From an uncultured Bacteroidales bacterium (lineage in GTDB: Bacteria > Bacteroidota > Bacteroidia > Bacteroidales > JAADJA01), in NCBI GenBank assembly GCA_963749345.1, contig CAVVMO010000004.1, forward strand, positions 286,047 through 350,046: a DNA stretch of 64,000 nt. Reading direction: 5' to 3'. Positions 1 through 27,000 of the stretch are shown in pieces (position 1 is the first letter of the stretch; each line of letters starts with the position of its first letter). A program made the translations under genes and the position numbers. The notes under the pieces were generated by a model, which saw nothing but the letters and a program-made list of their open reading frames with translations, made no database searches and was not told the origin of the DNA.

Positions 1-1
1 A

Positions 2-2305: not shown

Positions 2306-2313
2306 TAGATTTG
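2306..2313 (+). promoter_or_regulatory. Bacteroidota -7 promoter box TAGATTTG upstream of upp
   Basis: Exact match to TAnnTTTG, 44 nt upstream of the ATG at 2357. Confidence 0.4.
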
Positions 2314-2356
2314 TAACGAAAATATTTTCAGGTCGATTAACAACTCAACCACCGCC

Positions 2357-3010
2357 ATGATAAAAAATTTAGGTCTGAGCAACTCCATATTAAATCAATA
2401 CATTGCCGAGATCAGGGACAATGTAATCCAAAGCGATAGTTTGCGATTCAGGTATAATCTCGAGCGTATCAGCGAGATTTTTGCCTATGAAATAAGCAAA
2501 ACGATGGAGTACGAAAAAACTGAAGTCATTACTCCACTGGGAAGTGCAGAAGTTCCAATTTTGAAGAATTATCCGGTTATTATTCCTGTTTTGCGTGCAG
2601 GCTTGCCCATGCACCGCGGACTTCAAAACATCTTCGACAAATCAGAAAGTGCTTTTATTTCCGCTTATCGCAAAGTTGAAAAGAACGAAAAATTCATCAT
2701 CAAGGTAGAATATGTTTCATCTCCTGACCTAACCGGCAAAACTTTAATTTTAGCCGACCCCATGATGGCAACTGGTGCTTCTATCGTTGCGGTTTATAAG
2801 GAGCTGATCACGTTGGGAAAACCCGCACATTTTCACATTGTGATCATCATTGCAAGTGCCGAGGGAGTGGAGTTTGTTAAAAAAAGCCTGCCCGATAAAG
2901 AGGTCACACTTTGGGTGGGTGCTATTGATGACGAATTAACAGCCAAGGCTTACATCGTCCCGGGATTAGGCGATGCAGGCGATCTGGCATTTGGAAGAAA
3001 GAATTCCTGA
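2357..3010 (+). CDS. upp: uracil phosphoribosyltransferase
   Basis: 217 aa. It has the PRPP-binding motif LILADPMMATGAS, a VLRAGL loop and the C-terminal YIVPGLGDAGDLAFG signature of Upp. Confidence 0.9.
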   Translation: MIKNLGLSNSILNQYIAEIRDNVIQSDSLRFRYNLERISEIFAYEISKTMEYEKTEVITPLGSAEVPILKNYPVIIPVLRAGLPMHRGLQNIFDKSESAFISAYRKVEKNEKFIIKVEYVSSPDLTGKTLILADPMMATGASIVAVYKELITLGKPAHFHIVIIIASAEGVEFVKKSLPDKEVTLWVGAIDDELTAKAYIVPGLGDAGDLAFGRKNS

Positions 3011-3227
3011 CCCATATCAGGAAAATTAATTTATTTGTTCCAGCAACCCATTTTTCATCTCGCCTTGTCATTGACTTGCTACTTTAATAATATTTCGCAA
3101 AAATTTCAATTTTGAATTCACTCAGACCAGGATGATGATTTCTTTTTCTCGCCTGTCTAAAACTTTTGCATAGAAATTTCGTTAATTAACAGATCGAATA
3201 TTGCTTTTTAGTGAAACAGGAACTACC

Positions 3228-3731
3228 ATGACATTTATTATTGGTTTAAAAATCTTCAAATTACTTCAGGTACTCATTGTAAGCGGAATAAAATTTTTAT
3301 TCGCCCCCCTCATTTCGATTGGTTATGGGTTCAATTATATCCAAACAGCACTCATTACTGCTCTTGGAGGTATTCTGGGAATTTTATTTTTTTACTTTCT
3401 GAGCAAATGGATCATCGCTCAATACTACAAATATAGTCCTGTTATTTACAGTTATTTTACAGGAGTTAAAATCAGCCGTTCGCGGATAATTCTGATCCGT
3501 GAAAGTATTATTAAAAAGAAATTCACCCGGAAAAACAAGCTTATCATCAATGTACGGAACAAATATGGATTCTTCGGGGTAATTATCCTGACTCCGGTTT
3601 TACTCTCCATACCCTTGGGTGCATTTCTTGCACGAAAATATTATTCCGGAAGAAGCAACACCCTCATTTACATGAGCATTTCTGCGGTTTTGTGGTCCTT
3701 CTTTATTTCCTCTATTTTCTTTCTATTCTAA
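3228..3731 (+). CDS. small multi-pass membrane protein, unknown function
   Basis: The ORF 3201..3731 starts at TTG; the first ATG is at 3228 (MTFIIGLKIF...). Several hydrophobic segments are separated by basic loops (KKKFTRKNK). Confidence 0.55.
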   Translation: MTFIIGLKIFKLLQVLIVSGIKFLFAPLISIGYGFNYIQTALITALGGILGILFFYFLSKWIIAQYYKYSPVIYSYFTGVKISRSRIILIRESIIKKKFTRKNKLIINVRNKYGFFGVIILTPVLLSIPLGAFLARKYYSGRSNTLIYMSISAVLWSFFISSIFFLF

Positions 3732-3846
3732 AAGATTCAAATAATAGTCAGCCTTTTTTTGTTTTTGACGATTTGGTCGCTTTCTGATCACACAGAATAT
3801 TTTGTTGGAATTAATAATAATTGCTTCTGCAACTCTGAATAAACCC

Positions 3847-10433: not shown

Positions 10434-11402
10434 ATGAATTACCCCTGGGGACACGATAAAAGGTTCAATTCCTACCCTGAATATTTTAAAAAACTATTCG
10501 GCGAAAGGATCCAGAAAATTTCCGTAGATGCAGGATTTACATGTCCCAACCGGGATGGGACACTGGCTTACGGTGGTTGTACTTATTGTGATAATGATGC
10601 ATTCAATCCTTCTTATTGTCTTCCTGACAAATCGGTAACTCTGCAGATAAGTGAAGGCATCGAATTTCATGCAAAACGCTACAGAAGGGCAAACAAATTT
10701 CTGGTTTATTTCCAGGCTTATTCTAATACCTATGCATCGCTTGATCACATAAAAAAATTATATTCCGAAGCTTTAACCTATCCTGGAATTATCGGTCTTG
10801 TGATCGGCACCCGGCCTGATTGCATCGACGATGAAAAATTAAATTATTTTCGTGAGTTATCGGAAAGATATTACATCATTATAGAATATGGGATTGAATC
10901 ATGCTACAATAAAACCCTTGAAACCATTAACCGTCAGCATACATTTGAGCAATCAGTCGATGCTATACAAAGGACTGCTGCAGCAGGAATAAAAACCGGA
11001 GCACACATTATCTTCGGTCTGCCAGATGAAACAAGAGAACAAATGCTCAACGAAGCTGAGATTTTATCATCACTGCCAATCAATAACATCAAATTTCACC
11101 AACTCCAAATCGTAAAAAATACACCCATTGAAAAAGCATTTAAAAAAAATCCAGAAAGATTTAAGTTATTTGGATTGGATGAATACATCGAATTTATAAT
11201 AAAGTTCATTGAACGAATGAATCCGGAATTCATCATCGAACGGTTCACCGGTGAAATGCCACCCCGTTTCATTTCAGTCCCAAACTGGGGGCTAATCAGA
11301 AACGATCAGGTAAACAGGTTTATTGAAAAAAAGCTTGAAGAAAAAAACACCTGGCAGGGAAGGCAATTTAATCAGGAAGTAAAATTAAAAAAGTACAATT
11401 AA
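10434..11402 (+). CDS. TIGR01212-family radical SAM protein
   Basis: 322 aa. FTCPNRDGTLAYGGCTYCDN is the characteristic Cys cluster of this radical SAM subfamily, and the C-terminal region is conserved. Confidence 0.85.
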   Translation: MNYPWGHDKRFNSYPEYFKKLFGERIQKISVDAGFTCPNRDGTLAYGGCTYCDNDAFNPSYCLPDKSVTLQISEGIEFHAKRYRRANKFLVYFQAYSNTYASLDHIKKLYSEALTYPGIIGLVIGTRPDCIDDEKLNYFRELSERYYIIIEYGIESCYNKTLETINRQHTFEQSVDAIQRTAAAGIKTGAHIIFGLPDETREQMLNEAEILSSLPINNIKFHQLQIVKNTPIEKAFKKNPERFKLFGLDEYIEFIIKFIERMNPEFIIERFTGEMPPRFISVPNWGLIRNDQVNRFIEKKLEEKNTWQGRQFNQEVKLKKYN

Positions 11403-11508
11403 ACAAAATAGTAAGCAACCATTATCAAATAGGTGCTGTCAATGAAATAAATAGGAATAATAAAATGTGTCCAACTTTTATAAAACGCCTGGATATTTAA
11501 TTAAGTGC

Positions 11509-11516
11509 TATATTTG
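11509..11516 (+). promoter_or_regulatory. -7 promoter box TATATTTG of T9SS cargo gene 1
   Basis: TAnnTTTG match 56 nt upstream of the ATG at 11572. The same box sits upstream of gene 2 (15214) and a TACATTTG box upstream of gene 3 (20897). Confidence 0.5.
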
Positions 11517-11530
11517 TTGGGCAGAAAAAT

Positions 11531-12400
11531 ATGATTTAATCAATTATTTACATTAACTAAATTTTATTATTATGAAAGTGTTTACAAAAATGATGTGTGT
11601 AATGATGGTGTTACTGCTTTCGTTCACATTTGTTCTGGGACAATCGACAAATCTTGAGAAGATCAAGGCGAACAAGTCGACGACAGATTTAACTGTCGAC
11701 ACCTATGATGGGGTGAAACCCATTGCTAATCCAAATGACGCAGGTTCAAATGTAAGTTTTGCTTCAAGTGACCCTGATAAGTTAGTTCTTTTTGACAACG
11801 GACCAATGATCACACACCCCGGTGGCGGTTTTGGTGGTGCCGATGCAAGTGCATTACAGTCTGTGAGTGGTCCGGCATTAACAACTTATGGTTTCGGCGC
11901 TCAACAAACAGCGGGTAATTCTATGGCAGATGATTTTACTGTTACCGGTACGTGGACACTAAATACGATTACGTTTTTTTCGTATCAGACGGGTTCAACC
12001 ACTACCTCTACCATCACAGGAATTTATGCCCAAATCTGGAATGGTGCGCCCAATGCTGGTGGAACAGTTGTTTGGGGTAACCTTACAACAAATCTGTTGG
12101 CTTCAACTACCTTCACAAATATTTACAGAAGTATTGAAACTGACTTTCTGGCCAGCAACCGTCCGATTATGGAGGTGGTTGCCAATGTTGCCGGATGTGA
12201 GCTTTCTTCAGGAACTTATTGGGTACAATATCAATTTACAGGATCATTAGCTTCCGGTCCCTGGGCTCCGCCTATCTCTATATGGGATCAGGGAGAAACG
12301 GGAAATGCACTCCAGAATACTTCGACAGGATGGGCTGCTGCAGTTAGCGGTACAGCTCCCAATACGTATGCACAGGGAGTACCTTTTATCATTGAGGGTA
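11531..12400. repeat. R1a: 5' module (leader, signal peptide, N-domain) shared with 15243..16105
   Basis: Offset is 3712 nt. 11531-12111 is almost identical to 15243-15823 (three substitutions in the coding part by eye). Homology then continues at lower identity to about 12400/16105. Confidence 0.9.
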
Positions 12401-14760
12401 CTTCAGGAAGTGCTGGAAACACCGTTTTCTTTGATGATTTTGAAAGTGGTATAACAAACTGGGCAGTTACCGGGACATGGGGAATAACCGATCAATATTC
12501 TTATTCTACATCGCACTCGCTAACAGATAGTCCGGGTGGAAATTATATACCTAATCAGGAAACTTATTCAACAATGGTAAGTGGTGTTGATTTATCAGAC
12601 CCTGCAATTTTATCTGTGGATTTGTCATGGTGGATGATTATGGATATTGAAAATGGTAATTTTGATTATTTATATGTTGAAGTATCTGATGATAATTTTG
12701 CGACCTTTATTGAAATCGCTTCTTTTTTTGGAGAAGATATGCTTACCCCCTGGGTAGAATATTCCTACCCACTTAGCGTGTTTCTGGGAAGCAATAATGT
12801 AAAAGTAAGGTTCCATTTCTCAAGTGATCAAGGTTATGAAGTAGATGGATGTTACATTGATGATGTTACAATTACTACAAGCGATGTCGACAATGCACCT
12901 CCAGAAATATTTTTTGATGCACCTTTTGGTTATGAAGGGACAGCTATAGAATTTTTGGTAGAAGCAGAACTTATTGATGCTACAGGTGTTGCTTCCGCAG
13001 AAGTTATCTATACTGTTGATGGTGTAGTACAATCAAACATCACAGGTGTAAATGTCGGTGGCAATAACTGGGAATTCACAATTCCACAGCAAGATCCCGG
13101 CTACCAGGTTGATTTTGTGATTTCAGCTGTGGACGCTTCTCCAAATGCAAATGAAGCAATAACAGATACAGCACGGTATATTGCCGGTCAGTACATTAGT
13201 TATGACAATGCACAAGTTGATTTTTACACCTCAATTGCTGCTCCTGGTGGAACCGCTGTTTTATTTGAATTGACGAACCCTTCTCAGCTTGTTACTGCTC
13301 TCATTAGGAATTACACAGATCAGAGTCAACCCCCAAATGACGAAATGCTTGTCCATATATGGAGCGATGGTGGAGGAGTACCCGGCGCTGACCTGATCAC
13401 TCCCATTCTTATGATGCCGGAGGCTAACCTTATTAATACAAGAGCATTTACCCGGGTAGATTTACGGCCTTATGCCGCTCAGTTGTCAAACATAGTAGGT
13501 AATGTATTTATCGGCTATACTGTACCATCCGGTATAGTACTCACAACCATCACCCAGCCTGGAATAGGAAACCATTCATTTAATTCGCTTGATGGTTCTA
13601 CGTGGAATGCTTTAGCTGATGATTACCATTACAGAATCATTGTGGGTGAAGGTGGAACGAATCCTTTTGACCCTCCAACCAACCTTACCGGTCCTGATGC
13701 TGTAACGACTGGTGAAACAATAAATCTTGAATGGGATGCACCCGGAGGTGGTGGAACAATTGAAGAATTGATTTATGACAATGATGTTACTACCGGTGCT
13801 TATAGCTATAACGGATATACAATGTCGACCCATATGTCTCCTGCTGGTTCTTGTAAAGTTCTGTCTATGAAATTTTATACAACCATACAAGCTGGTGCGA
13901 ATGATTTCAATGCCACACTTTTTGAATGGGCTGGTTCTCAACCTGGACTGGATATTATCTACCAGGAAAATGTGACAGCTGTGGACGATAATTGGATGGA
14001 GGTTGATATTTCATCTCAGAACATTACCTTTAGCGGTGATTTTGTTGTAGGATTTGGATCTGTTAACGCTACTACATTCCTCGGTTATGACGCCGGATTA
14101 AATAATGGACGATCATGGGATTTCAACAATAGTTCCCCTTCATGGTCAGAGTGGAATGAAGCTTACCTGATCAGAGCAATTGTAGAATATACCGATGGAA
14201 CCATTGCTGAAATTGGAACAGTAAATATTCAAAACCCGGTTTCTGTTAAATCTGCAGAATTATCTGTACATCCGACCGATTATTCAGCGGTTACTACAGT
14301 AAAACCGATCGGCAATCTTGCAGCATCTGTAAAAGAGCTTGTTGGATATAATGTATATCGTGATGGTTCAATGATTGATTATACAACTGAAACCTTTTAT
14401 AATGATGTAATCCTTGTTTCAGGTATATATCAATATTTTGTCACAGCCGTTTATGAAAATCCGGCCGGTGAATCTTTACCATCAAATACAATTACAGTGG
14501 ACGTGTTAACCAGTATCGAAGATGTGATATCTAACAGCACATCCATTTACCCGAATCCTGCTTCTAATGTTGTAAATATTAAATCTGATTATACAATTAA
14601 TACAATCAAGGTTTATAATTATTCAGGACAGGTTATTTCTAATGAACTCGTTGATACTAAATTCTTCCAGTTCAATACTTCAAAGTTCAATTCAGGATTG
14701 TATCTATTCCAGATTGAAACCAATGAAGGTACCATTACAAAACGAATTATTATCGAATAA
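11572..14760 (+). CDS. modular T9SS-secreted surface protein, gene 1 of the array (1062 aa)
   Basis: Signal peptide MKVFTKMMCVMMVLLLSFTFVLGQ, then an N-domain shared with gene 2. A MAM/choice-of-anchor-J-like block follows (FFDDFESGITNWAVTGTWG...CYIDDVTIT), then FN3-like segments (PPTNLTG...LEWDAP; LVGYNVYRDGSMIDYT...). The C-terminal ~75 aa (IYPNPASNVVNIKS...GLYLFQIETNEGTITKRIIIE) fit the T9SS type-A sorting domain pattern. Confidence 0.9.
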   Translation: MKVFTKMMCVMMVLLLSFTFVLGQSTNLEKIKANKSTTDLTVDTYDGVKPIANPNDAGSNVSFASSDPDKLVLFDNGPMITHPGGGFGGADASALQSVSGPALTTYGFGAQQTAGNSMADDFTVTGTWTLNTITFFSYQTGSTTTSTITGIYAQIWNGAPNAGGTVVWGNLTTNLLASTTFTNIYRSIETDFLASNRPIMEVVANVAGCELSSGTYWVQYQFTGSLASGPWAPPISIWDQGETGNALQNTSTGWAAAVSGTAPNTYAQGVPFIIEGTSGSAGNTVFFDDFESGITNWAVTGTWGITDQYSYSTSHSLTDSPGGNYIPNQETYSTMVSGVDLSDPAILSVDLSWWMIMDIENGNFDYLYVEVSDDNFATFIEIASFFGEDMLTPWVEYSYPLSVFLGSNNVKVRFHFSSDQGYEVDGCYIDDVTITTSDVDNAPPEIFFDAPFGYEGTAIEFLVEAELIDATGVASAEVIYTVDGVVQSNITGVNVGGNNWEFTIPQQDPGYQVDFVISAVDASPNANEAITDTARYIAGQYISYDNAQVDFYTSIAAPGGTAVLFELTNPSQLVTALIRNYTDQSQPPNDEMLVHIWSDGGGVPGADLITPILMMPEANLINTRAFTRVDLRPYAAQLSNIVGNVFIGYTVPSGIVLTTITQPGIGNHSFNSLDGSTWNALADDYHYRIIVGEGGTNPFDPPTNLTGPDAVTTGETINLEWDAPGGGGTIEELIYDNDVTTGAYSYNGYTMSTHMSPAGSCKVLSMKFYTTIQAGANDFNATLFEWAGSQPGLDIIYQENVTAVDDNWMEVDISSQNITFSGDFVVGFGSVNATTFLGYDAGLNNGRSWDFNNSSPSWSEWNEAYLIRAIVEYTDGTIAEIGTVNIQNPVSVKSAELSVHPTDYSAVTTVKPIGNLAASVKELVGYNVYRDGSMIDYTTETFYNDVILVSGIYQYFVTAVYENPAGESLPSNTITVDVLTSIEDVISNSTSIYPNPASNVVNIKSDYTINTIKVYNYSGQVISNELVDTKFFQFNTSKFNSGLYLFQIETNEGTITKRIIIE

Positions 14761-14786
14761 TAGTTCCTGAAATACATTGCATAAAA

Positions 14787-14815
14787 GGCTGTCCAAAAAG
14801 GACAGTCTTTTTTTA
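14787..14815 (+). terminator. intrinsic terminator of cargo gene 1
   Basis: GGCTGTCC-aaaaa-GGACAGTC is followed by T7. It is homologous to the hairpins after genes 2 and 3. Confidence 0.75.
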
Positions 14816-14817
14816 TT

Positions 14818-14976
14818 GTGTGAGGTCATATCCAAAAGCCTTCGCTCTTTCTGATTTGTGCAAGTGGATGCAGCGTTGGGTAATCCGAAAGCAATAATAA
14901 GGGATTTAAAATCCCTTCCCTTCTCCCACCCGGATTAGCTCCCCGAATGCTCTGGCTCAAATCCGGACGAGCAGCG
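14818..14976. repeat. post-terminator element, copy 1 (shorter)
   Basis: It aligns with 20579..20826 through shared blocks ..AGGTCAnATCCAAAAG.., ..TTCGCTCTTT..GATTTG.., ..TAATCCGAAAGCAATAA.. and ..CAAATCCGGnCGAGCAGCG, with indels between them. Confidence 0.75.
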
Positions 14977-15213
14977 CCAGGCTAGGGATTGATAAGGAAT
15001 GATCAGGTAAACCTATTCATTGCCTATAAGATAGAACAAATAAATACATGATAAAGAAAAAAATTTAAAACAACTGAAATTAAAGTTATTTAAAATATTA
15101 CTTTAGCGACTTATATTGAAAGCAAATTTTGTATTTTTGATGCTGTCATAAAAAAAGCAACGAATAAAATTTATATATTTTTAATAAATTTCTTGGATAT
15201 TTCAAAAATGCGC

Positions 15214-15221
15214 TATATTTG
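15214..15221 (+). promoter_or_regulatory. -7 promoter box TATATTTG of T9SS cargo gene 2
   Basis: TAnnTTTG match 63 nt upstream of the ATG at 15284. Confidence 0.5.
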
Positions 15222-15242
15222 CTGTTCAGAAAAAAGAAAAAA

Positions 15243-16105
15243 ATGATTCAATCAATTATTTACATTAACTAAATTTTATTATTATGAAAGTGTTTACAAA
15301 AATGATGTGTGTAATGATGGTGTTACTGCTTTCGTTCACATTTGTTCTGGGACAATCGACAAATCTTGAGAAGATCAAGGCGAACAAGTCGACGACAGAT
15401 TTAACTGTCGACACCTATGATGGGGTGAAACCCATTGCTAATCCAAATGACGCAGGTTCAAATGTAAGCTTTGCTTCAAGTGACCCTGATAAGTTAGTTC
15501 TTTTTGACAACGGACCAATGATCACACACCCCGGTGGCGGTTTTGGTGGTGCCGATGCAAGTGCATTACAGTCTGTGAGTGGTCCGGCATTAACAACTTA
15601 TGGTTTCGGCGCTCAACAAACAGCGGGTAATTCTATGGCAGATGATTTTACTGTTACCGGTACGTGGACACTAAATACGATTACGTTTTTTTCGTATCAG
15701 ACGGGTTCAACCACTACCTCTACCATCACAGGAATTTATGCCCAAATCTGGAATGGTGCGCCCAATGCCGGTGGAACAGTTGTATGGGGTAACCTTACAA
15801 CAAATCTGTTGGCTTCAACTACCTGGTCAAGCATTTACAGGAGTATTGAAACTGACCTTCTGGCCAGCAATCGTCCGATTATGGCAGTGGTTGCCAATGT
15901 TGCCGGATGTGTGCTTTCTTCAGGTACTTATTGGGTACAATATCAATTTACAGGATCATTAGCTTCCGGTCCCTGGGCTCCGCCAATCTCTATATGGAAT
16001 CAGGGAGAAACGGGGAATGCACTCCAGAATACTTCAACAGGATGGGCTGCTGCAGTTAGCGGTACAACTCCTTATGCACAAGGAGTGCCTTTTATCATTG
16101 ATGGA
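15243..16105. repeat. R1b: 5' module shared with 11531..12400
   Basis: See R1a. Confidence 0.9.
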
Positions 16106-19100
16106 ACTACCGGTGGACTTCCGGGTAACGACCTTTCAGTGACAAGCATTTTAGCCCCATCAACCGGCGCTAATTTAGGATCTGCTGAACCCGTTACCAT
16201 CAGGATACAAAATATGGGTACCAATCCACAATCAAATTTCCCTGTTTTCTATACTATAAATGGCGGCGCTCAGGTTAATGGAACTGTTACAGCGACTATT
16301 AACAGCCTTGCTACCTACGATTATACCTTTGCTACTACCGCTAATCTTTCAGCCTATGGGGTTTATAATTTCCATGCCTGTGTTAACTTAACAGGTGATG
16401 AAAATCCTGCAAACAATTGCTTTGATAAAGTAGTTGAAAACCTTATGCCTTCTTATTGTACTGCATCAACAACCACTGAGGATGAATATATTGCAAATGT
16501 ATCCTGCGGCACCATTAACAATCCCAGTGGATGGCAGGGTGGTGTTGCCGATTATACTGCAATTTTCACTACCATTGATGCTGGCATGTCCGAAGATATT
16601 ACCGTTTTAAATGGTCCTAATATTTATGCCTCTGACCAGGTTACCTGCTGGGTTGACTGGAATATGGATTATACATTCGGCACTGGTGATGAAGAATTTA
16701 TTTTAACTAATGTAGGTGGAACCGGAGCCACTTTCACAGGTGCAATCACCGTTCCTGCTGGTACACCTGGTGGAGATTACAGGATGAGGGTCAGAATGAC
16801 TTACAGCCTTGCTCCGGTACCTTGCGGAAGTGCATCCTATGGCGAAATTGAAGATTATACTATAAATGTTGGTGGTGTAATTAATCCAAATATCGTTTTT
16901 GAAGATAATTTCGATGCATATACTGCCGGCGGTCAAGTGGCTTGTCAAAATCCTACCGGATGGACAACCTGGAGCAATGCTCCTTGCGGTTCAGAAGATG
17001 CCTATGTATCGAATCTTTATTCTTACAGCAGTCCAAATTCTGCAGTGATAGCTCAAAATAACGATTTGGTTAAGGATTTTGGTGATCCATACACATCAGG
17101 AAAATATAGTATAAGTTTTTATGCTTATATTCCTGCAACTAAAACAGGGTACTTCAATACCTTACAAAAGTTTACAGTTGCCCCTCAGATTTGGGGTCTT
17201 GAGGTATACTTTAATGCAGGTGGTGCAGGAAGCATCAATGCAGGTGGTACCGGAACTGCTACTTTCACATGGACACCTGGTACCTGGTTCATGGTTGAGC
17301 ATATTATCGATATGGATAATGATATGTCTGAAATCTGGATCGGTGGAATTATGATCTATTCCTACCAGTGGAGCCTTGGAGCTACCGGAACAGGACAAAA
17401 TACATTGGAAGCCAATGATTACTTTGGAGCTACGGCCAATGATCAAATGTATATTGATGACTATAAACTTGAATTAATTCCACCAGTTACACTTAATCCT
17501 CCAACAAACCTTACTGCAACCGTTGCTGATGATGATGTTCAACTGGAATGGGATGCACCGACAGCCGAACCCCTTCTGGGCTATAATGTCTATCGTGACG
17601 GAACGATGATCGACTATACTACAGCCACATCTTATGACGATATGGATCTTGCCGAAGGCACATACGGATATTATGTAACTGCCGTTTACGACGAAGGAGA
17701 ATCAGTACCTTCCAACACGGTAAGTGCAACTATTTCAGGCGGCACATCAGGAGTGATCTTTACCTATGACTTTGAAAACTATACTTCCGGTGGGCAGGTA
17801 GCTTGCCAAACACCTGATGAATGGACAACCTGGAGTAATTTGCCTTGTGACGCTGTGGAAGATGCTTATATTTCCAGTCTTTATGCACACAGCGGTGTAA
17901 ACTCTGCAGTTGTTGTACAAAACAATGACCTGGTTAAGGACTTTGGAGAAGCCTATACAACGGGTAAATACAAAATCAGTTTCTGGGTTTATATCCCAAC
18001 CGGAAAAGCAGGTTATTTCAATACCCTCGCAAGCTTTGCCGGAACAACCAGCAGCTGGGGTCTCGAGGTTTATTTCAACCTGGGAGGTGCCGGAAGTATC
18101 AACGCTGGCGGAACGGGAGCATCTACTTTCTTCTGGAATGAGAATACATGGTTCTACGTTGAAAATGTGGTTGATTTGGATATGGACTGGGCAGAATTCT
18201 GGATTGACGGTAATATGCTTTATGAATGGCAATGGACTTTGGGATCAAATGGTGTGGCTATACCAAATACTTTGGATGCTAACGATTTCTTTGGCGCTAC
18301 TGCTAACGATCAAATGTTTTTTGACGATTATGTGCTGGAATCTTTTGGAGCTCTTGCAGGTCCAACTAACTTAACATTAAGTTTATCAGGCAGTAATGTT
18401 GTTCTTGACTGGGATGCACCTTCAGGAAAATCATTCAGCAATAATGTTCCAATCCAGGAATTACCTCTGACTGTTACAACTGAGTTAACAAATTCGGTGC
18501 ATAATAATTTACTCAATCAATACAAACAAAGTGGTCAGGAAATCAAAGCTGAACAGTTGATTAACAACGCAAAAACTCCTGCAGGTTATCAGCCATTTAA
18601 ACTTGATATCAAGGGTGCAACTGCATATGCTTTTGTCGCTTATGATCCGAGCAGTGTAAATCCAATTGGCCCTGCTTATTTTGATACAGATTTCCCGGGT
18701 ACTATTACTTCATTAGGTCCAAATGGTGCTGGTGATTTTATCGCCGGTGGTTCATGGGCTGAAGGTGTATGGTATGGTGAGGAATATGGTACCGGCGCTT
18801 TATATACCATTGATCCTTCTTCAGGCGCTATGTCCTTGGTTGGTTACGGCTCAGCAGCCGGTGGATTCAATGCGATAGCTTACGATGTTACCACGTCCAC
18901 AATGTTCGGTTGTGATTATAATGGCAGTTCCTGCGGACTGTACTCAATTGATCTGTCTTCAGGTGCAAATACCTATATTGGTGATGTGGGTTTAGGTGCA
19001 TTGGTTATTGGACTGGCCTGTGATGCATCAGGTAATTTATATGCAGCCGATCTTTTTACCGATGTTCTGATTTCAGTTGACAAAGCTACAGGCGCTGGTA

Positions 19101-20521
19101 CAGTAATCGGGCCACTTGGTATAAACATCAATTATGCCCAGGACTTAGAGTATGACAATGAAAATGATGTACTCTATCTTGCCGGATATACTGCAACAGG
19201 AGAACTTTATACCGTTGATCCATCAACAGGAGATGCTACATTTGTCGGGACTTTCCAGGGCGGTGCTGAAATTTGCGGACTCGCCTTTGAATACAATGCG
19301 GTTCAGTATACAAATGATATTGGAATTCAAAGCATACTTTCCCCAGCCAGTGGTGTTAACTTAGGCAATGAAGTTGTAACTGTCAGGATAAAGAATTTTG
19401 GCACAGCAGCGCAATCCAATTTCAACATTTCCTATACGCTGGATGGCGGTACTCCGGTTAATGCAACCATTACAAATTCCATTGCAGGTGGTGCAACCTA
19501 TGATTATACCTTCACGGGAACGGTGAATCTTTCAGCTTACGGTACCTATGAATTTGTAGCTTGTACCTACCTTGCAGGTGACGAAAATGCTGTGAATGAC
19601 TGTAAACCTAAGAGCGTTACCAATAGTGAGCCTTCACTCTGTGTTCCTCAATATGGCACCGGTTGTGCTTTTGGAGATGGCTTTACTGATTTCGTTCTGG
19701 CTGAAATTCAAAACAATGGTTCAGGATGTGCCGATCTGAATGGTATAGGCTGGAGCCAGTATTTCAATTTAGGCCCTGCCATGCTGAGCGCCGGTGGAAC
19801 TTATGATGTGATTATGACCGGTGGTTATGATGGCACCTTTGCTTCCATGTGGATCGATTTTAATGATGACCTGGTACTAAGTTCAGACGAAGAGATATTT
19901 ATCGGTTATGAACTGGTAACAATGGGCGTTCCTTATACGGTTTCTATTACTATTCCGGCCAATGCACCAAGTGGACAGCATGTCATGAGGGCCCGCACCA
20001 ATTGGCTGGCACCAGCTCCAGATCCTTGTGCATTATATACTTACGGCGAAGCTGAAGATTACATTGTACAGGTTGGTGGTGGTGGCACTGGATTGCTTGG
20101 TTATAATGTTTACCATTCATACCAGAATGGAGCCTTCAGCGTGCTTGATTTTGTAACGCCTACTAACTATACACATTTTGATCCTCCTTATGGTTTGCAT
20201 AAATATTATGTAACAGCCGTATACGACGAAGGTGAATCAGGACCCACAAATACAGTACAAGTTACGCTTACCGGTGTTCAGGAAACTGCAGTTGAGTCAA
20301 CCCAGATTTACCCGAACCCAGCAAACAGTGTTGTTAATATCAAATCTGCATTTGACATTACGTCTGTCAGGGTTTACAATCATGCAGGTCAAATCATAGC
20401 CAGCGAGCTTGTAAATACGAAATTCTACCAGTTCAATACTTCACAGTTCACTCCGGGATTATACATGTTCCAGATTGAAACCAATGAAGGTACGATCACG
20501 AAACGAATTATTGTCGAATAA
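15284..20521 (+). CDS. modular T9SS-secreted surface protein, gene 2 of the array (1745 aa, chimeric)
   Basis: Same signal peptide and N-domain as gene 1. Then come a CARDB-like module (16127-16435) and a GEVED-like module (16451-16870, ..SYGEIEDYTINV). Two ~195-aa jelly-roll/LamG-like copies (16892-17473, 17753-18340) are separated by an FN3-like module. From 18361 the gene is homologous to gene 3: beta-propeller-like repeats (LYTIDPSSGA, LYSIDLSSGA, LISVDKATGA, LYTVDPSTGD), a second CARDB-like module (19310-19621), a second GEVED-like module (19631-20074, ..YGEAEDYIVQV), an FN3-like module and the T9SS CTD (20297-20518). Confidence 0.9.
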   Translation: MKVFTKMMCVMMVLLLSFTFVLGQSTNLEKIKANKSTTDLTVDTYDGVKPIANPNDAGSNVSFASSDPDKLVLFDNGPMITHPGGGFGGADASALQSVSGPALTTYGFGAQQTAGNSMADDFTVTGTWTLNTITFFSYQTGSTTTSTITGIYAQIWNGAPNAGGTVVWGNLTTNLLASTTWSSIYRSIETDLLASNRPIMAVVANVAGCVLSSGTYWVQYQFTGSLASGPWAPPISIWNQGETGNALQNTSTGWAAAVSGTTPYAQGVPFIIDGTTGGLPGNDLSVTSILAPSTGANLGSAEPVTIRIQNMGTNPQSNFPVFYTINGGAQVNGTVTATINSLATYDYTFATTANLSAYGVYNFHACVNLTGDENPANNCFDKVVENLMPSYCTASTTTEDEYIANVSCGTINNPSGWQGGVADYTAIFTTIDAGMSEDITVLNGPNIYASDQVTCWVDWNMDYTFGTGDEEFILTNVGGTGATFTGAITVPAGTPGGDYRMRVRMTYSLAPVPCGSASYGEIEDYTINVGGVINPNIVFEDNFDAYTAGGQVACQNPTGWTTWSNAPCGSEDAYVSNLYSYSSPNSAVIAQNNDLVKDFGDPYTSGKYSISFYAYIPATKTGYFNTLQKFTVAPQIWGLEVYFNAGGAGSINAGGTGTATFTWTPGTWFMVEHIIDMDNDMSEIWIGGIMIYSYQWSLGATGTGQNTLEANDYFGATANDQMYIDDYKLELIPPVTLNPPTNLTATVADDDVQLEWDAPTAEPLLGYNVYRDGTMIDYTTATSYDDMDLAEGTYGYYVTAVYDEGESVPSNTVSATISGGTSGVIFTYDFENYTSGGQVACQTPDEWTTWSNLPCDAVEDAYISSLYAHSGVNSAVVVQNNDLVKDFGEAYTTGKYKISFWVYIPTGKAGYFNTLASFAGTTSSWGLEVYFNLGGAGSINAGGTGASTFFWNENTWFYVENVVDLDMDWAEFWIDGNMLYEWQWTLGSNGVAIPNTLDANDFFGATANDQMFFDDYVLESFGALAGPTNLTLSLSGSNVVLDWDAPSGKSFSNNVPIQELPLTVTTELTNSVHNNLLNQYKQSGQEIKAEQLINNAKTPAGYQPFKLDIKGATAYAFVAYDPSSVNPIGPAYFDTDFPGTITSLGPNGAGDFIAGGSWAEGVWYGEEYGTGALYTIDPSSGAMSLVGYGSAAGGFNAIAYDVTTSTMFGCDYNGSSCGLYSIDLSSGANTYIGDVGLGALVIGLACDASGNLYAADLFTDVLISVDKATGAGTVIGPLGININYAQDLEYDNENDVLYLAGYTATGELYTVDPSTGDATFVGTFQGGAEICGLAFEYNAVQYTNDIGIQSILSPASGVNLGNEVVTVRIKNFGTAAQSNFNISYTLDGGTPVNATITNSIAGGATYDYTFTGTVNLSAYGTYEFVACTYLAGDENAVNDCKPKSVTNSEPSLCVPQYGTGCAFGDGFTDFVLAEIQNNGSGCADLNGIGWSQYFNLGPAMLSAGGTYDVIMTGGYDGTFASMWIDFNDDLVLSSDEEIFIGYELVTMGVPYTVSITIPANAPSGQHVMRARTNWLAPAPDPCALYTYGEAEDYIVQVGGGGTGLLGYNVYHSYQNGAFSVLDFVTPTNYTHFDPPYGLHKYYVTAVYDEGESGPTNTVQVTLTGVQETAVESTQIYPNPANSVVNIKSAFDITSVRVYNHAGQIIASELVNTKFYQFNTSQFTPGLYMFQIETNEGTITKRIIVE
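16892..17473 (+). repeat. intragenic duplicated jelly-roll/LamG-like module, copy 1
   Basis: IVFEDNFDAYTAGGQVACQNPTGWTTWSN...NNDLVKDFG...GYFNTL...WGLEVYFN.GGAGSINAGGTG...GATANDQMYIDDYKLE aligns along its full length with copy 2. By eye a majority of positions are identical. Confidence 0.8.
17753..18340 (+). repeat. intragenic duplicated jelly-roll/LamG-like module, copy 2
   Basis: VIFTYDFENYTSGGQVACQTPDEWTTWSN...NNDLVKDFG...GYFNTL...WGLEVYFNLGGAGSINAGGTG...GATANDQMFFDDYVLE. Confidence 0.8.
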
Positions 20522-20577
20522 TAATTCCTGAAATACATTCTTAAAAGGCTGTCCTCTTTTGGACGGCCTTTTTTTAT
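18361..20577. repeat. R2a: 3' module (2.2 kb, through stop codon and terminator) shared with 21704..23916
   Basis: Offset is 3343 nt. The core 18743-19992 is virtually identical to 22086-23335. The out-of-frame ORFs 19152..19364 and 22495..22707 translate identically. The flanks are clearly more diverged. Confidence 0.92.
20546..20577 (+). terminator. intrinsic terminator of cargo gene 2
   Basis: AGGCTGTCC-tctttt-GGACGGCCT is followed by T7. Confidence 0.75.
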
Positions 20578-20578
20578 T

Positions 20579-20826
20579 GAGTGCAGGTCAAATCCAAAAG
20601 TGCACCGTCATTGCGAACGGAATAAAATGAAGTGAAGCAATCTCCCTTCGCTCTTTTCCAGATTTGTTCAAAGGGAACCAGCGCTGTATAATCCGAAAGC
20701 AATAAAAAGGCATTTTCCCAAAGGTCCAAAGGACTCAAATGGAGGATGGTTTTGCCATAAATCCCACTCTTACTCCCATCCTGATTAACTCCTAACTTAC
20801 CCTGTTTCAAATCCGGGCGAGCAGCG
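20579..20826. repeat. post-terminator element, copy 2 (longer)
   Basis: Homolog of 14818..14976. It has extra insertions, including a palindromic CATTGCGAACGG...GAAGCAATC segment. Confidence 0.75.
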
Positions 20827-20896
20827 TTTATAGCTAATTTATTTAATTGGATTTGAATAAACTATTCATATATTTTTTTGTTTATTGAAAACCTAT

Positions 20897-20904
20897 TACA
20901 TTTG
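20897..20904 (+). promoter_or_regulatory. -7 promoter box TACATTTG of T9SS cargo gene 3
   Basis: TAnnTTTG match 57 nt upstream of the ATG at 20961. Confidence 0.5.
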
Positions 20905-20960
20905 CCTTTTTTAAGGTTTATTATTCAATCCATTATTTACATTAACTAAATTTTATTATT

Positions 20961-23861
20961 ATGAAAATGTTTACAAAAATGATGAGTCTGGTGATGGTGT
21001 TCTTTCTATCGTCCAGTCTGATCTTTGGACAGGCTAATCCTGATCAGTTCAAGGTTGAGCTTATGAAAAAAAATGCGGTACCTGTTTTGGTTTCCGGACC
21101 CATAAAATCGGGTTACATTCCGGCACAGACCGATGATGTTTTGTGGTCGCAGATGTCACCTTCAGATGCTGATGGTGCATGTGCATCCCAGGATTTTGAA
21201 GCAGCTAACGACATTTACGACTGCCGTGGAGCAGATGATTTTACAGTTACAAGTGGACCCTGGGAAGTAAGTGTTGTGTCGTTTATTGGTGCCTATTGGA
21301 ATGCTACTCCGGGAGGTCCGGCAGACGGATTCAACATTGAATTCTTCAACGATGCCGCCGGAGTTCCCGGAACCTCTGTTCAAAATTATTCCAACCTGGC
21401 CTATACTGCGGTTCCATCAGGTGCTTCTTTCATTTTTACTGTAAATCTTCCTGCACCTTTGATCCTTGCTAACGGAAATTACTGGATCGCCATGCAGGCA
21501 CGTATGGACTTTACGCCAGGTGGACAGTTCGGTCTTTTGCCACAGTTACCCCCGCAAATCCAATACGAAAGAATGTGGATTTGCCCGGGTGGAGGATTTC
21601 CGGGAGCAACAACCTGGACACCAGGAACGGCAATATGGCCGGGACAAGCCGGCAAAGATTGGTGCTTTCAACTCGAAGGTTCAGTGGGTGGTGTTCTCGA
21701 CCCTCCAACAAACCTTACCCTAAATTTATCAGGCAGTAATGTTGTTCTTAACTGGGATGCACCTTCAGGAAAATCATTCAGCAACAATGTTCCAATCCAG
21801 GAATTACCCCTGACTGTGACAACTGAGTTAACAAATTCAGTGCATAATAATTTACTCAACGAATACAAACAAAGTGGTCAGGAAATCAAAGCTGAACAGT
21901 TGATTAGCAATTCAAAAGCTCCTGTTGCCTACAAGACTATGAAACTTGATGTCAAGGGCGCTACAGCTTATTGTTGTGTAGCTTATGACCCATCATCCGT
22001 GCTTCCGATTGGGCCCGCCACATTTGATACCGACTTCCCCGGAACAATTACTTCTCTGGCTCCTGGCACATCCGGCGACTTTATTGCCGGTGGTTCATGG
22101 GCTGAAGGTGTATGGTATGGTGAGGAATATGGTACCGGCGCTTTATATACCATTGATCCTTCTTCAGGCGCTATGTCCTTGGTTGGTTACGGCTCAGCAG
22201 CCGGTGGATTCAATGCGATAGCTTACGATGTTACCACGTCCACAATGTTCGGTTGTGATTATAATGGCAGTTCCTGCGGACTGTACTCAATTGATCTGTC
22301 TTCAGGTGCAAATACCTATATTGGTGATGTGGGTTTAGGTGCATTGGTTATTGGACTGGCCTGTGATGCATCAGGTAATTTATATGCAGCCGATCTTTTT
22401 ACCGATGTTCTGATTTCAGTTGACAAAGCTACAGGCGCTGGTACAGTAATCGGGCCACTTGGTATAAACATCAATTATGCCCAGGACTTAGAGTATGACA
22501 ATGAAAATGATGTACTCTATCTTGCCGGATATACTGCAACAGGAGAACTTTATACCGTTGATCCATCAACAGGAGATGCTACATTTGTCGGGACTTTCCA
22601 GGGCGGTGCTGAAATTTGCGGACTCGCCTTTGAATACAATGCGGTTCAGTATACAAATGATATTGGAATTCAAAGCATACTTTCCCCAGCCAGTGGTGTT
22701 AACTTAGGCAATGAAGTTGTAACTGTCAGGATAAAGAATTTTGGCACAGCAGCGCAATCCAATTTCAACATTTCCTATACGCTGGATGGCGGTACTCCGG
22801 TTAATGCAACCATTACAAATTCCATTGCAGGTGGTGCAACCTATGATTATACCTTCACGGGAACGGTGAATCTTTCAGCTTACGGTACCTATGAATTTGT
22901 AGCTTGTACCTACCTTACCGGTGACGAAAATGCTGTGAATGACTGTAAACCTAAGAGCGTTACCAATAGTGAGCCTTCACTCTGTGTTCCTCAATATGGC
23001 ACCGGTTGTGCTTTTGGAGATGGCTTTACTGATTTCGTTCTGGCTGAAATTCAAAACAATGGTTCAGGATGTGCCGATCTGAATGGTATAGGCTGGAGCC
23101 AGTATTTCAATTTAGGCCCTGCCATGCTGAGCGCCGGTGGAACTTATGATGTGATTATGACCGGTGGTTATGATGGCACCTTTGCTTCCATGTGGATCGA
23201 TTTTAATGATGACCTGGTACTAAGTTCAGACGAAGAGATATTTATCGGTTATGAACTGGTAACAATGGGCGTTCCTTATACGGTTTCTATTACTATTCCG
23301 GCCAATGCACCAAGTGGACAGCATGTCATGAGGGCACGCACCAGTTGGCTCTCAGCAGCTACCGATCCTTGTGCATTATATACCTACGGCGAAGCTGAAG
23401 ATTACATTGTACAGGTTGGTGGTGGCACTGGGTTACTTGGTTATAATGTTTACCATGCATCCGGGGGTGGTAGTTTCAGTGTGCTCGATTTTGTTACACC
23501 TACTACCTACACACATGTTGATCCTCCATTAGGTTTGCATGAATATTATGTAACAGCCGTATACGATAGTGGCGAATCAGAACCTACAAATACTGTATCA
23601 GTAGTGCTTACCGGTGTTCAGGAAAGTGTTGTTGAATCAACTCAGATTTACCCGAATCCGGCTTCTGCAGTTGTAAATATTAAATCGGAATATTCAATTG
23701 TTAATGTTAAGGTTTACAATTATGCAGGACAGGTAATTGCAAGCGAACTCGCTGATACCAAATTCTACCAATTCAATACTTCAAAGTTTACTCCTGGATT
23801 ATACATGTTCCAGATTGAAACCAATGAAGGTACGATCACGAAGCGAATTATTGTCGAATAA
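20961..23861 (+). CDS. modular T9SS-secreted surface protein, gene 3 of the array (966 aa)
   Basis: Signal peptide MKMFTKMMSLVMVFFLSSSLIFGQ, then a distinct ~240-aa N-domain (..GADDFTVTSGPWEVSVVSF..NYWIAMQARMDF..). From 21704 it carries the same FN3-like/linker/propeller-like/CARDB-like/GEVED-like/FN3-like/T9SS CTD series as gene 2. Confidence 0.9.
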   Translation: MKMFTKMMSLVMVFFLSSSLIFGQANPDQFKVELMKKNAVPVLVSGPIKSGYIPAQTDDVLWSQMSPSDADGACASQDFEAANDIYDCRGADDFTVTSGPWEVSVVSFIGAYWNATPGGPADGFNIEFFNDAAGVPGTSVQNYSNLAYTAVPSGASFIFTVNLPAPLILANGNYWIAMQARMDFTPGGQFGLLPQLPPQIQYERMWICPGGGFPGATTWTPGTAIWPGQAGKDWCFQLEGSVGGVLDPPTNLTLNLSGSNVVLNWDAPSGKSFSNNVPIQELPLTVTTELTNSVHNNLLNEYKQSGQEIKAEQLISNSKAPVAYKTMKLDVKGATAYCCVAYDPSSVLPIGPATFDTDFPGTITSLAPGTSGDFIAGGSWAEGVWYGEEYGTGALYTIDPSSGAMSLVGYGSAAGGFNAIAYDVTTSTMFGCDYNGSSCGLYSIDLSSGANTYIGDVGLGALVIGLACDASGNLYAADLFTDVLISVDKATGAGTVIGPLGININYAQDLEYDNENDVLYLAGYTATGELYTVDPSTGDATFVGTFQGGAEICGLAFEYNAVQYTNDIGIQSILSPASGVNLGNEVVTVRIKNFGTAAQSNFNISYTLDGGTPVNATITNSIAGGATYDYTFTGTVNLSAYGTYEFVACTYLTGDENAVNDCKPKSVTNSEPSLCVPQYGTGCAFGDGFTDFVLAEIQNNGSGCADLNGIGWSQYFNLGPAMLSAGGTYDVIMTGGYDGTFASMWIDFNDDLVLSSDEEIFIGYELVTMGVPYTVSITIPANAPSGQHVMRARTSWLSAATDPCALYTYGEAEDYIVQVGGGTGLLGYNVYHASGGGSFSVLDFVTPTTYTHVDPPLGLHEYYVTAVYDSGESEPTNTVSVVLTGVQESVVESTQIYPNPASAVVNIKSEYSIVNVKVYNYAGQVIASELADTKFYQFNTSKFTPGLYMFQIETNEGTITKRIIVE

Positions 23862-23916
23862 TAATTCCTGAAATACACTCCAAAAAAGGCTGTCCGGTTT
23901 TGGGCGGTCTTTTTTG
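21704..23916. repeat. R2b: 3' module shared with 18361..20577
   Basis: See R2a. Confidence 0.92.
23888..23916 (+). terminator. intrinsic terminator of cargo gene 3
   Basis: GGCTGTCC-ggttt-TGGGCGGTC (with G:U pairs) is followed by TTTTTTG. Confidence 0.6.
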
Positions 23917-23975
23917 TTTTAATGGGATTCCTTAAATGACTAATGAATCATATTAGTTTGATATTATAAATTTTA

Positions 23976-23983
23976 TACTTTTG
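23976..23983 (+). promoter_or_regulatory. -7 promoter box TACTTTTG upstream of ileS
   Basis: TAnnTTTG match 35 nt upstream of the ATG at 24018. Confidence 0.4.
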
Positions 23984-24017
23984 CACACTTTTTAAATCAT
24001 ACAGATTTTCAGCTTGA

Positions 24018-27000
24018 ATGAAACGGAAATATTCAGAATATAAGCAACTTGATTTAACACACATCGGAAAAGAGATCAACAACTATTGGAAAGGGCACCG
24101 AACTTTCGAAAAAAGTGTTGATCTGAGAAAGGGGCATAAGCCGTTTGTGTTTTATGAAGGTCCGCCTTCTGCCAATGGTACACCAGGCATCCATCATGTG
24201 ATGGCCCGTGCCATTAAGGATATATTCTGCCGTTATAAAACCATGAAAGGCTATCTGGTTGAACGCAAGGCCGGGTGGGATACGCATGGCCTTCCCGTAG
24301 AGATAAGCGTTGAAAAATCATTGGGTATCACCAAAGAAGACATTGGTACAAAAATTTCGGTAGAAGACTACAATAAGGCCTGCCGGAAAGAGGTGATGAA
24401 ATATAAAGATCTTTGGGATGACTTGACTGTTAAAATGGGATATTGGGTTGATCTGGATAATCCCTATATTACTTTCGATAATAAATACATCGAAACCGTT
24501 TGGTGGTTATTAAGAAAATTGTATGATAAAGGATTATTGTATAAAGGATATACCATTCAACCCTATTCACCAGCTGCCGGGACAGGACTTAGTTCGCATG
24601 AATTAAACATGCCGGGTTGTTACCGGGATGTAAAAGATAATACGGTAGTTGCCCAGTTTAAAGTTTTACGGGATGAAAAATCTGAATTTTTATTTGATGC
24701 TGTATTTGGTGATTTGTTTTTCCTTGCATGGACAACGACTCCATGGACACTGCCCTCAAATACAGCATTGGCCGTCGGAGTGAATATCAATTATATAAAA
24801 GTTAAAACTTACAATCCCTATACCCATCAACCTATCACAGTAATATTGGGTAAAGATCTTCTGAATAAGTATTTCCCTGAATCGAACACTGAATTGAAAT
24901 TAGAGGAATATGAACCGGGGCAGAAAAAGATTCCGTTTATTGTAGCAGGTGAATTTAAAGGAAAAGACCTGAAGGATATTCGCTTTGAGCAATTACTGCC
25001 TTATGTACAGCCAGAAGATGGTGATGCCTTCAGGGTTTTATTAGGAGATTTTGTTACCACCGACGAAGGAACCGGTATTGTTCATATAGCTCCAAGCTTT
25101 GGTGCAGATGACTTTAAAGTTGCCCGTGAAAATGGAATTGGTTCACTGACTCTTGTTAACAAGCAGGGAAAATTTGTGGAAGAAATGGGTGAATTTGCCG
25201 GTCGGTTTGTAAAGCAGGAATACGATCCCAATTACGACCCCGCCAAAGAAGATTCGGTCGACATTGACATCATCGTAAAACTGAAAAAAGAGAACAAGGC
25301 ATTTAAAACCGAAAAGTATGTTCACTCCTACCCTCATTGCTGGCGAACGGATAAACCGATACTTTACTATCCGCTGGATTCGTGGTTCATCAAAACTACA
25401 GCATTCAAGGACAGGATGATTGAACTGAACAACACCATCAACTGGAAACCAAAGGCGACCGGAACCGGAAGGTTTGGAAACTGGTTAGAAAATCTGGTTG
25501 ATTGGAATCTATCCCGATCAAGGTACTGGGGAGTGCCTTTACCGATTTGGATGACTGAGGATGAAACAGAAAAAATTTGCCTTGGGTCTGCTGAAGAATT
25601 AAAGGCAGAAATCGAAAAGTCAATAGATGCTGGTTTTATGATTAAAAATCCATTGGCGGATTTTATTCCTGGTAATAATTCAAAAGAGAATTATGAGACA
25701 TTTGATTTTCATAAACCTTATGTTGATGATATAATACTTGTTTCTCCCGGTGGAAAAAAAATGTTTCGGGAACCGGCACTAATTGATGTATGGTTTGATT
25801 CAGGGGCGATGCCTTATGCCCAGTTCCATTATCCGTTTGAAAACAAAGAAAACCTGGACGATTATTTTCCGGCAGATTTTATCGCCGAAGGAGTAGATCA
25901 AACCCGGGGATGGTTTTTCACGCTCCATGCTATCGCCACAATGGTTTTTGATTCTGTTGCTTACAAAACCTGTGTTTCGAACGGACTGGTGCTGGATGCC
26001 CATGGAAATAAAATGTCAAAACGATTAGGAAATGCTGTCGATCCATTTGCAACCATTGAGAAATTTGGACCGGATGCTACCCGCTGGTATATGATCACCA
26101 ATTCCCAACCCTGGGATAACCTGAAATTTGATGATGCGGGGATTGATGAAGTTAAAAGGAAATTCTTTGGTACCCTTTATAATACGTATGCCTTTTTTGC
26201 TCTCTATGCCAACATCGATGGCTTTAACTATTCCGAGCCTGAAATTCCTGTTGAAAAAAGACCTGAACTTGACCGCTGGATCATTTCTGAACTGAATAGC
26301 CTGATCAAAAATGTGGATGAATGTTACCTCGACTATGAGCCGACAAAAGCCGGCAGGGCAATCAGCGAGTTTCTTGATCTCCATCTAAGCAATTGGTATG
26401 TGCGGTTGAGCAGGAGAAGATTCTGGAAGGGGGAGTATACTGATGATAAAATTGCCGCTTATCAAACTTTATATCGTTGCCTTGAAGTCATTGCACAATT
26501 AGCCTCTCCGATAGCTCCATTCTTTATGGAGAAATTGTTTGTCGACCTGAATTCGGTAACTGCTCACTTATCGTCTGATTCAGTTCATCTTACAGACTTT
26601 CCATTTTCAGATGAAAAGCTGATTGATAAAAGACTCGAAGAGCGGATGGAATTGGCGCAGAAAATATCCTCGATGGTTTTGTCATTGCGTAAAAGAACCA
26701 GTATCAGGGTGCGCCAGCCACTGAATAAGATCATGATCCCTCTGATGAACAACCACTTCAGGGAAAATGTAGAGGCAGTCAAACACCTCATCTTATCCGA
26801 AGTCAATGTGAAAGACCTGGAATTCATGGAGGATGATAAAATCCTTATGAAAAAAATTAAGCCGAACTTTAAAACTTTGGGACCTAAGTATGGCAAATTG
26901 ATGAAATCAATCAATGCTGCACTGATAGCTTTTGACAATGAGCAGATCGGCCAATTTGAAACAGCAGGAAAATACAACCTTCAAATTGAAGGACAAGAAG

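Follow-up and report, generated by a model that had tools for sequence, protein, structure and literature searches.

Concerted evolution of paralogous genes by gene conversion is known from tufA and tufB in Salmonella and from rRNA operons. In Neisseria pilE/pilS, Borrelia vlsE and Treponema tprK, silent promoterless cassettes act as donors for a single expression site, and it is the expressed gene that is diversified. Porphyromonas gingivalis hagA, rgpA and kgp are dispersed and not arranged in tandem. Gene conversion of paralogues has been surveyed for prokaryotes (PMC6053082), and the rates at which it occurs in rRNA genes have been studied (PMC8022953). The repeats of adhesin domains in P. 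gingivalis hagA, rgpA and kgp have been attributed to recombination, and they defeat automated assembly (PMC5266723), while in Mycobacterium tuberculosis conversion has been described for gene pairs of the PE/PPE and PE_PGRS families (PMC1762029, PMC12046097, PMC13061034). Here we analyze a stretch of 64,000 nucleotides from an uncultured Bacteroidales bacterium (GenBank assembly GCA_963749345.1, contig CAVVMO010000004.1, positions 286,047 to 350,046 of the forward strand), referred to as the window, in which three genes encoding cargo proteins of the type IX secretion system (T9SS) lie in tandem on the same strand. Genes 2 and 3 carry a 1.25-kb tract of near-identity that very probably arose when one of these tandem same-strand paralogues was recently overwritten from the other by non-reciprocal homologous replacement (gene conversion).

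As is the case for the tuf genes and the rRNA operons, paralogues within one genome are closer to each other here than to their orthologues, the tracts are in register, of kilobase scale and bounded by diverged sequence, and the process has recurred independently in related lineages. Unlike those dispersed housekeeping genes, which are homogenized over their whole length, the genes of the window are adjacent, encode variable multi-domain surface proteins and are homogenized in an internal segment only, with tract limits that differ between lineages. With the P. gingivalis genes they have in common that they encode T9SS cargo of Bacteroidota and contain repeats which are hard to assemble; nevertheless, the domains are a DUF4394 propeller, CARDB and GEVED, no cleaved-adhesin domain was found in genes 1-3, and the host is an uncultured environmental Bacteroidales and not a pathogen. 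The M. tuberculosis PE/PPE genes resemble the locus in that conversion among neighboring or paralogous genes for surface and secreted proteins produces mosaic alleles and diversity hotspots, best resolved by long reads, but they differ in protein families, in secretion (ESX instead of T9SS) and in phylum. Non-reciprocal copying of segments between paralogous surface-protein sequences would be shared with pilE/pilS, vlsE and tprK, whereas the three tandem genes are complete and the event homogenizes the copies. The tract thus adds one more case to a well-known process, with domains unrelated to the earlier ones and an uncultured environmental host lineage, and reveals no new mechanism. It provides a clear and internally controlled case of concerted evolution in T9SS cargo of environmental Bacteroidales, something rarely documented outside Porphyromonas.

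Coordinates are positions in the window, and the copies in genes 2 and 3 were compared at a fixed offset of 3343. An earlier note, made from the sequence of this DNA alone, had described segments 18743-19992 and 22086-23335 as matching base for base, wherever compared, except for one codon. Exact comparison gives the same picture: 1248 of the 1250 positions are identical, and both mismatches, at 19574 (G/A) and 19576 (A/C), fall in a single codon, which is GCA (Ala) in gene 2 and ACC (Thr) in gene 3. The first mismatches beyond the tract ends are found at 18742 and 19993. The wider homology between both genes (18361-20574 vs 21704-23915) shows 92% identity and 165 mismatches by blastn. On both sides of the tract the same in-register alignment continues with a divergence of about 17-18%, which corresponds to about 70 mismatches over 380 bases on the upstream side and about 100 over 580 bases on the downstream side. 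The examples of flanking differences given in the same note (NQYKQ/NEYKQ, TPAGYQPFKLDI/APVAYKTMKLDV, TNWLAPAPD/TSWLSAATD and GGGG/GGG) were all found. Identity in sliding windows of 100 nt is 70-95% upstream of the tract and 79% immediately downstream, with a sharp plateau in between, so that divergence along the alignment is not uniform. The offset remains constant through the tract and the adjoining flanks, without an indel at either tract end; an indel located beyond about 20077 moves the register to 3340. Chance is excluded as the cause of the identity. Given the flank divergence of 0.175, finding at most two differences in 1250 sites has a binomial probability of 1e-100, and finding at most one synonymous difference in 298 synonymous sites, at a proportion of synonymous differences (pS) of 0.42, has one of 7e-69. 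In a Sawyer-type (GENECONV-style) permutation of the polymorphic sites, the observed run was reached in 0 of 10,000 shuffles.

The searched collections hold only four related strains. A genome scan identified L001, a metagenome-assembled genome of an uncultured Bacteroidales that is syntenic with the window, shows about 94% nucleotide identity over 19 kb and contains both genes. In L002, a more distant outgroup (about 76-81% identity), the module is present just once. Only five members, from four strains, make up the 90% protein cluster of gene 3, and a metagenome scan with gene 3 yielded only distant relatives and one 1.6-kb fragment at 78% amino-acid identity. Genes 2 and 3 and the spacer between them are syntenic in L001, with unchanged copy number and spacing. 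For a quartet test, genes 2 and 3 of the window genome and of L001 were aligned, and the informative sites supporting concerted evolution or orthology were counted in gene 2 coordinates. Within the tract (18743-19992), 82 sites support concerted evolution and 0 support orthology. The flanking homology keeps the orthologous phylogeny, with counts of 0 and 7, respectively, upstream (18361-18436) and of 1 and 65 downstream (20101-20574). This switch of the site pattern is the defining signature of concerted evolution. Likewise, identity between the paralogues of the window genome is 100% in nearly every 100-nt window of the tract, vs 72-99% between genomes.

Divergence at synonymous sites (dS) and the ratio of non-synonymous to synonymous divergence (dN/dS) were calculated for gene 2 vs gene 3 by the Nei-Gojobori method. 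dS is 0.80 in the upstream flank (dN/dS 0.15) and 0.50 in the downstream flank (dN/dS 0.24), but 0.003 in the tract, where there is one synonymous and one non-synonymous change and dN/dS is not meaningful. Between orthologues (window genome vs L001), dS within the tract is 0.22-0.29. The gene 2 and gene 3 copies are old and, as shown by dN/dS values of 0.15-0.24 in the flanks, under purifying selection. Synonymous sites are homogenized in the tract and not in the flanks, hence selection at the protein level cannot explain the plateau. A recent conversion tract within older paralogy, as proposed in the earlier note, is thus supported by the plateau, the permutation, the synonymous sites and the four-sequence site patterns. 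A very recent partial duplication, which the note had offered as an alternative, does not stand as a separate option: replacement of homologous sequence in register, without indels at the ends, amounts to conversion.

L001 has a paralogue plateau of its own, spanning the equivalent of about 18437 to 19915, with 97-100% identity per 100-nt window. Within the tract, 19.5 synonymous and 4.5 non-synonymous changes separate its two copies (dS 0.069). As these differences are mostly synonymous, they correspond to real substitutions and not to sequencing errors; and as a dS of 0.069 is lower than that between orthologues, the event in L001 took place after both genomes split, yet well before the event in the window genome. 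The L001 plateau is about 335 bases longer at its 5′ end, sparse differences starting after 18407 as compared to 18743 in the window. Conversion occurred independently in both lineages, with different end points, the L001 tract being the older one. Between 18437 and 18742, gene 3 of the window stands apart from the other three copies at 61 sites; the outgroup sides with it at 24 of these and with the other copies at 22, a split expected if gene 3 of the window has retained its old sequence and gene 3 of L001 was overwritten by gene 2 sequence. The 18408-18742 segment of L001 looks like the product of a transfer from gene 2 to gene 3.

Exchange is not restricted to genes 2 and 3. A second near-identity tract connects genes 1 and 2, with 3 mismatches in 575 nt, just one of them in the first 519; its surroundings are diverged by about 25-35% upstream and about 6-7% downstream. 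When compared to the gene 2 orthologues of L001 and of the related-strain metagenome contig L051, genes 1 and 2 of the window genome share a state of their own at 10 sites, and gene 2 alone differs at 0 sites. The N-terminal part of gene 1 (11572-13665), comprising a gene-2-like domain and a MAM-like region, is wholly unlike its counterparts in L001 (2442-3496) and L051 (4411-6558), which are sortilin/BNR-like. Homology with both resumes at 13665, ten bases 5′ of a PTNLT motif at 13675, and the whole 5′ module of gene 1 has been swapped. PTNLT is found at the starts of fn3-like segments, at nt 13675, 17501, 18362 and 21705, and the homology between genes 2 and 3 (18361/21704) starts within one base of it (18362/21705). 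The older module junctions therefore lie at domain linkers, in contrast to the ends of the recent tract.

A fourth strain, represented by a short contig (L052; ERZ25039503 contig_119767, 1-3747), contains a mosaic gene 2 orthologue. Its 5′ part is of the gene 2 type, its GEVED segment (equivalent to 19628-20014) is of the outgroup type, and the sorting domain belongs to the gene 3 type (at 20113-20313 it shares 97-99% identity with the gene 3 copies, and further on 93-100%, vs 70-89% with the gene 2 copies). The downstream intergenic sequence is again of the gene 2 type (87% vs 41%), which rules out that L052 is a deletion fusion of genes 2 and 3. Taking into account the tracts in genes 2 and 3, in genes 1 and 2 and in L001, as well as the mosaic in L052, this gene family evolves through recurrent exchange between paralogues.

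The sequence of events would be as follows. An old 2.2-kb module common to genes 2 and 3, starting at PTNLT at a domain border, would allow misaligned copies to pair, either on the same chromosome or on sister chromosomes. By heteroduplex formation or double-strand-break repair, about 1.25 kb would then be copied from one gene into the other, wiping out roughly 200 accumulated differences. The same process has been repeated in L001 (earlier, and with another 5′ end), in genes 1 and 2 of the window and in the sorting domain of the fourth strain, and the central module therefore evolves concertedly in each genome, whereas the flanks retain their orthologous history. The tract starts within the propeller and stops within GEVED, neither limit being a domain border (gene 3 amino acids 376-792, corresponding to residues 128-544 of the structural model described below), which fits homology-driven exchange rather than domain shuffling. 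The data show the identity plateau, the homogenization of synonymous sites, the change in phylogenetic signal at both tract ends and the existence of independent tracts, while a recombination machinery of the RecA type, the non-reciprocity of the exchange and its direction in the window genome are inferred.

Some points weigh against gene conversion as set out above. The single differing codon requires an added assumption, either an unconverted island or two later mutations. Both copies are known from the assembly consensus alone, and consensus polishing could have homogenized them. Fixing the donor and the non-reciprocity takes a pre-conversion sequence. Lastly, only two genomes hold both paralogues in full, the other strains being represented by fragmentary metagenome contigs that break at the repeat. 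With respect to the codon (19574-19576), gene 3 of the window, the two copies of L001 and gene 2 of L051 have ACC, and the outgroup L002 has ACA. The gene 2 orthologue of L052 has GCC (Ala), with the first-position G in common with the GCA of gene 2 of the window. The Ala codon may be an older gene 2 polymorphism that was spared by conversion, because of patchy mismatch repair or because two events, 831 and 416 bases long, adjoin each other there; the alternative is that two new mutations arose in one codon.

The only rival explanation that matters is an artefact of assembly or polishing, in which copies that truly differ, for instance by a few percent as in L001, would have been made alike by using reads of one for the other. 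Metagenome contigs of a related strain do end at or near the repeated module (contig end of L051 at 13402, and L052), and L001 has frameshifted open reading frames (ORFs; gene 2 and the isoleucyl-tRNA synthetase, IleRS, are both split), taken to be long-read indel errors, so that errors in the consensus do occur in assemblies from this lineage. Nevertheless, the source contig is 3.1 Mb long with intact ORFs, and the source assembly is presumably a long-read one, with reads spanning the 1.25-kb repeat into the diverged flanks. Moreover, divergence rises sharply to 17-18% right outside the plateau, one copy-specific codon is retained within it, and the independently assembled L001 has the same concerted pattern with other limits and mostly synonymous differences. 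An artefact could inflate the identity but not generate the 82:0 site pattern, and we consider it quite improbable. We judge unequal crossing-over to be just as improbable, that is, a reciprocal exchange between misaligned copies leading to hybrid genes and to gain or loss of copies. Tandem direct repeats of such a size are substrates for it, and L052 shows that hybrid gene 2/gene 3 arrangements exist in nature. A single event, however, changes how many copies there are and leaves one whole side of the junction either gene-2-like or gene-3-like, whereas here each copy has kept its orthologous identity in either flank (0:7 and 1:65) and the spacing and the unique N-terminal regions are intact. 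As the flanks keep their own identity, a single unequal crossover is excluded and two exchange points are required; judging from the sequence pattern, these would correspond to conversion or to a double crossover, which share the same signature.

Within the tract, the block 19159-19312 (22502-22655 in gene 3) is 17-28% diverged from L001 and L051, mostly at third codon positions, compared to about 6% genome-wide, and it is identical in both paralogues of the window genome. States specific to this genome, those of the hyperdivergent block included, are present in both of its paralogues. Such a block resembles an imported allele, and one could consider that both copies acquired the same foreign allele separately, through horizontal transfer followed by homologous recombination and without any exchange between paralogues. 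This would need the same donor sequence and the same end points to the base (18743/22086 and 19992/23335) in both genes, and one import plus conversion between paralogues fits the same data with one coincidence fewer, which makes double import very improbable. The simplest history would be that a divergent allele was imported into one copy and spread by conversion to the other. Finally, the copies might be held identical by extreme purifying selection at the nucleotide or protein level, and the module protein is indeed well conserved across strains. Yet only 1 of the 298 synonymous sites differs between the paralogues, vs an orthologue dS of 0.22-0.29, and no Rfam RNA family is found in the region (no match at E 0.1 or better in 11000-24500). 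We count this explanation, which is barely conceivable, as already refuted by the synonymous-site comparison.

Dedicated variation systems were also considered. A target of a diversity-generating retroelement was discarded, the G/A and A/C mismatches in one codon fitting an adenine-only pattern in neither direction; no reverse transcriptase was found in the ten neighboring ORFs scanned. Silent-cassette antigenic variation was rejected because each of the three genes is a full-length ORF that has its start codon, a conserved leader, a signal-like peptide and a terminator-like hairpin. Recombinase-driven variation was rejected as well: the scanned neighbors are housekeeping genes (a POT transporter, a radical SAM protein, IleRS, a DksA/TraR-type zinc finger protein, the signal peptidase II LspA, an ATP synthase subunit and an extracytoplasmic function sigma factor), with no recombinase or mobile element among them. 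No inverted repeats of at least 40 nt were detected in the window (14-nt seed). A more speculative and unlikely idea is that the three genes form a self-contained cassette-exchange system, in which leaders, terminators and PTNLT linkers would frame swappable modules. Frequent conversion between the copies and import of divergent alleles (e.g., 19159-19312) would then be selected to re-assort surface-exposed propeller, CARDB, GEVED and sorting-domain segments. If true, this would provide population-level variation of T9SS surface proteins against phages or predators without a dedicated recombinase.

The coordinates of the three genes and of the features described are listed in Table 1.

Table 1. 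Location of the tandem T9SS cargo genes, their exchange tracts and associated elements in the 64,000-nt window (aa, amino acids).
Feature	Position	Strand	Description
Gene 1	11572-14760	+	1062 aa; T9SS cargo; Por_Secre_tail, weak InhA-like MAM match
Gene 2	15284-20521	+	1745 aa; T9SS cargo; two GEVED, fn3, DUF4394, CARDB, Por_Secre_tail
Gene 3	20961-23861	+	966 aa; T9SS cargo; DUF4394, CARDB, GEVED, Por_Secre_tail
Identity tract, gene 2 copy	18743-19992	+	aa 1154-1570; 2 mismatches in 1250 nt
Identity tract, gene 3 copy	22086-23335	+	aa 376-792
Sole differing codon	19574-19576	+	GCA in gene 2; partner 22917-22919, ACC in gene 3
Full paralogous module, gene 2	18361-20574	+	From PTNLT at the start of the fn3-like segment through T9SS sorting domain, stop codon and terminator
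Full paralogous module, gene 3	21704-23915	+	92% identity to the gene 2 module (blastn); PTNLT at nt 21705
Second near-identity tract, gene 1 copy	11538-12112	+	Leader, putative signal peptide and N-terminal domain; offset 3712
Second near-identity tract, gene 2 copy	15250-15824	+	Partner of the gene 1 copy
Conserved leader and putative signal-peptide region	11530-11626 (gene 1); 15242-15338 (gene 2); 20919-21015 (gene 3)	+	Repeat family D6, 87-98% identity
Terminator-like hairpins	14783-14811 (gene 1); 20543-20572 (gene 2); 23881-23916 (gene 3)	+	Similar to each other, AAAAGGCTGTCC...

DUF4394, CARDB and GEVED domains are common to the proteins encoded by genes 2 and 3. The gene 3 protein is 100% identical to P0001, which is encoded on a 3,136,011-bp contig; look-ups of the exact sequences of gene 2, gene 3 and P0001 gave no entry. 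All three proteins contain the C-terminal sorting domain (TIGR04183/PF18962), with scores of 46.5-48.9 bits vs a cut-off of 23 and of 48.9-51.4 bits vs a cut-off of 27, the cut-offs being the curated ones of Pfam and NCBIfam. Their N-termini, as read from the translations, are hydrophobic and signal-like (MKVFTKMMCVMMVLLLSFTFVLGQ, MKMFTKMMSLVMVFFLSSSLIFGQ). The conserved leader ahead of the start codon is AT-rich and about 43 nt long in all three genes. Having each its own leader and its own strong terminator-like hairpin, genes 1-3 look like separate transcription units.

The tract encodes the beta-propeller (DUF4394) from blade 2 on, the immunoglobulin (Ig)-like CARDB domain and about two-thirds of GEVED. 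The shared module (gene 3 amino acids 249-896) was modeled with AlphaFold, the mean predicted local distance difference test score (pLDDT) being 71 overall. In means of 10-residue blocks, pLDDT is 75-93 for the beta-propeller (model residues ~87-310), 83-96 for the Ig-like CARDB domain (~320-422) and 79-88 for an fn3-like domain (after ~580); for the GEVED region (~480-571) confidence is low (46-65). When this model was used in a fold search, the matches were no more than generic ones, to propellers with Ig-like domains behind them, for instance 1l0q, a surface-layer fragment consisting of a YVTN propeller and PKD, and no specific biochemical function was therefore assigned. A sequence search with the tract protein against solved structures gave no match. 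We take these proteins to be binding proteins that are secreted or located at the cell surface.

The tract has practical implications as well. Trees of these proteins will be misleading, as the paralogues cluster by genome across the tract. Short-read or collapsed assemblies will break or be mis-joined at the repeat, as the related metagenome contigs do. In addition, a near-perfect direct repeat of 1.25 kb is a ready substrate for deletions or duplications of 3.3 kb.

Gene 2 also contains an internal tandem duplication (16919-17464/17780-18331, 68% nucleotide identity) of a domain that has no Pfam match and is characterized by the motif GGQVACQxP..WTTWSN.

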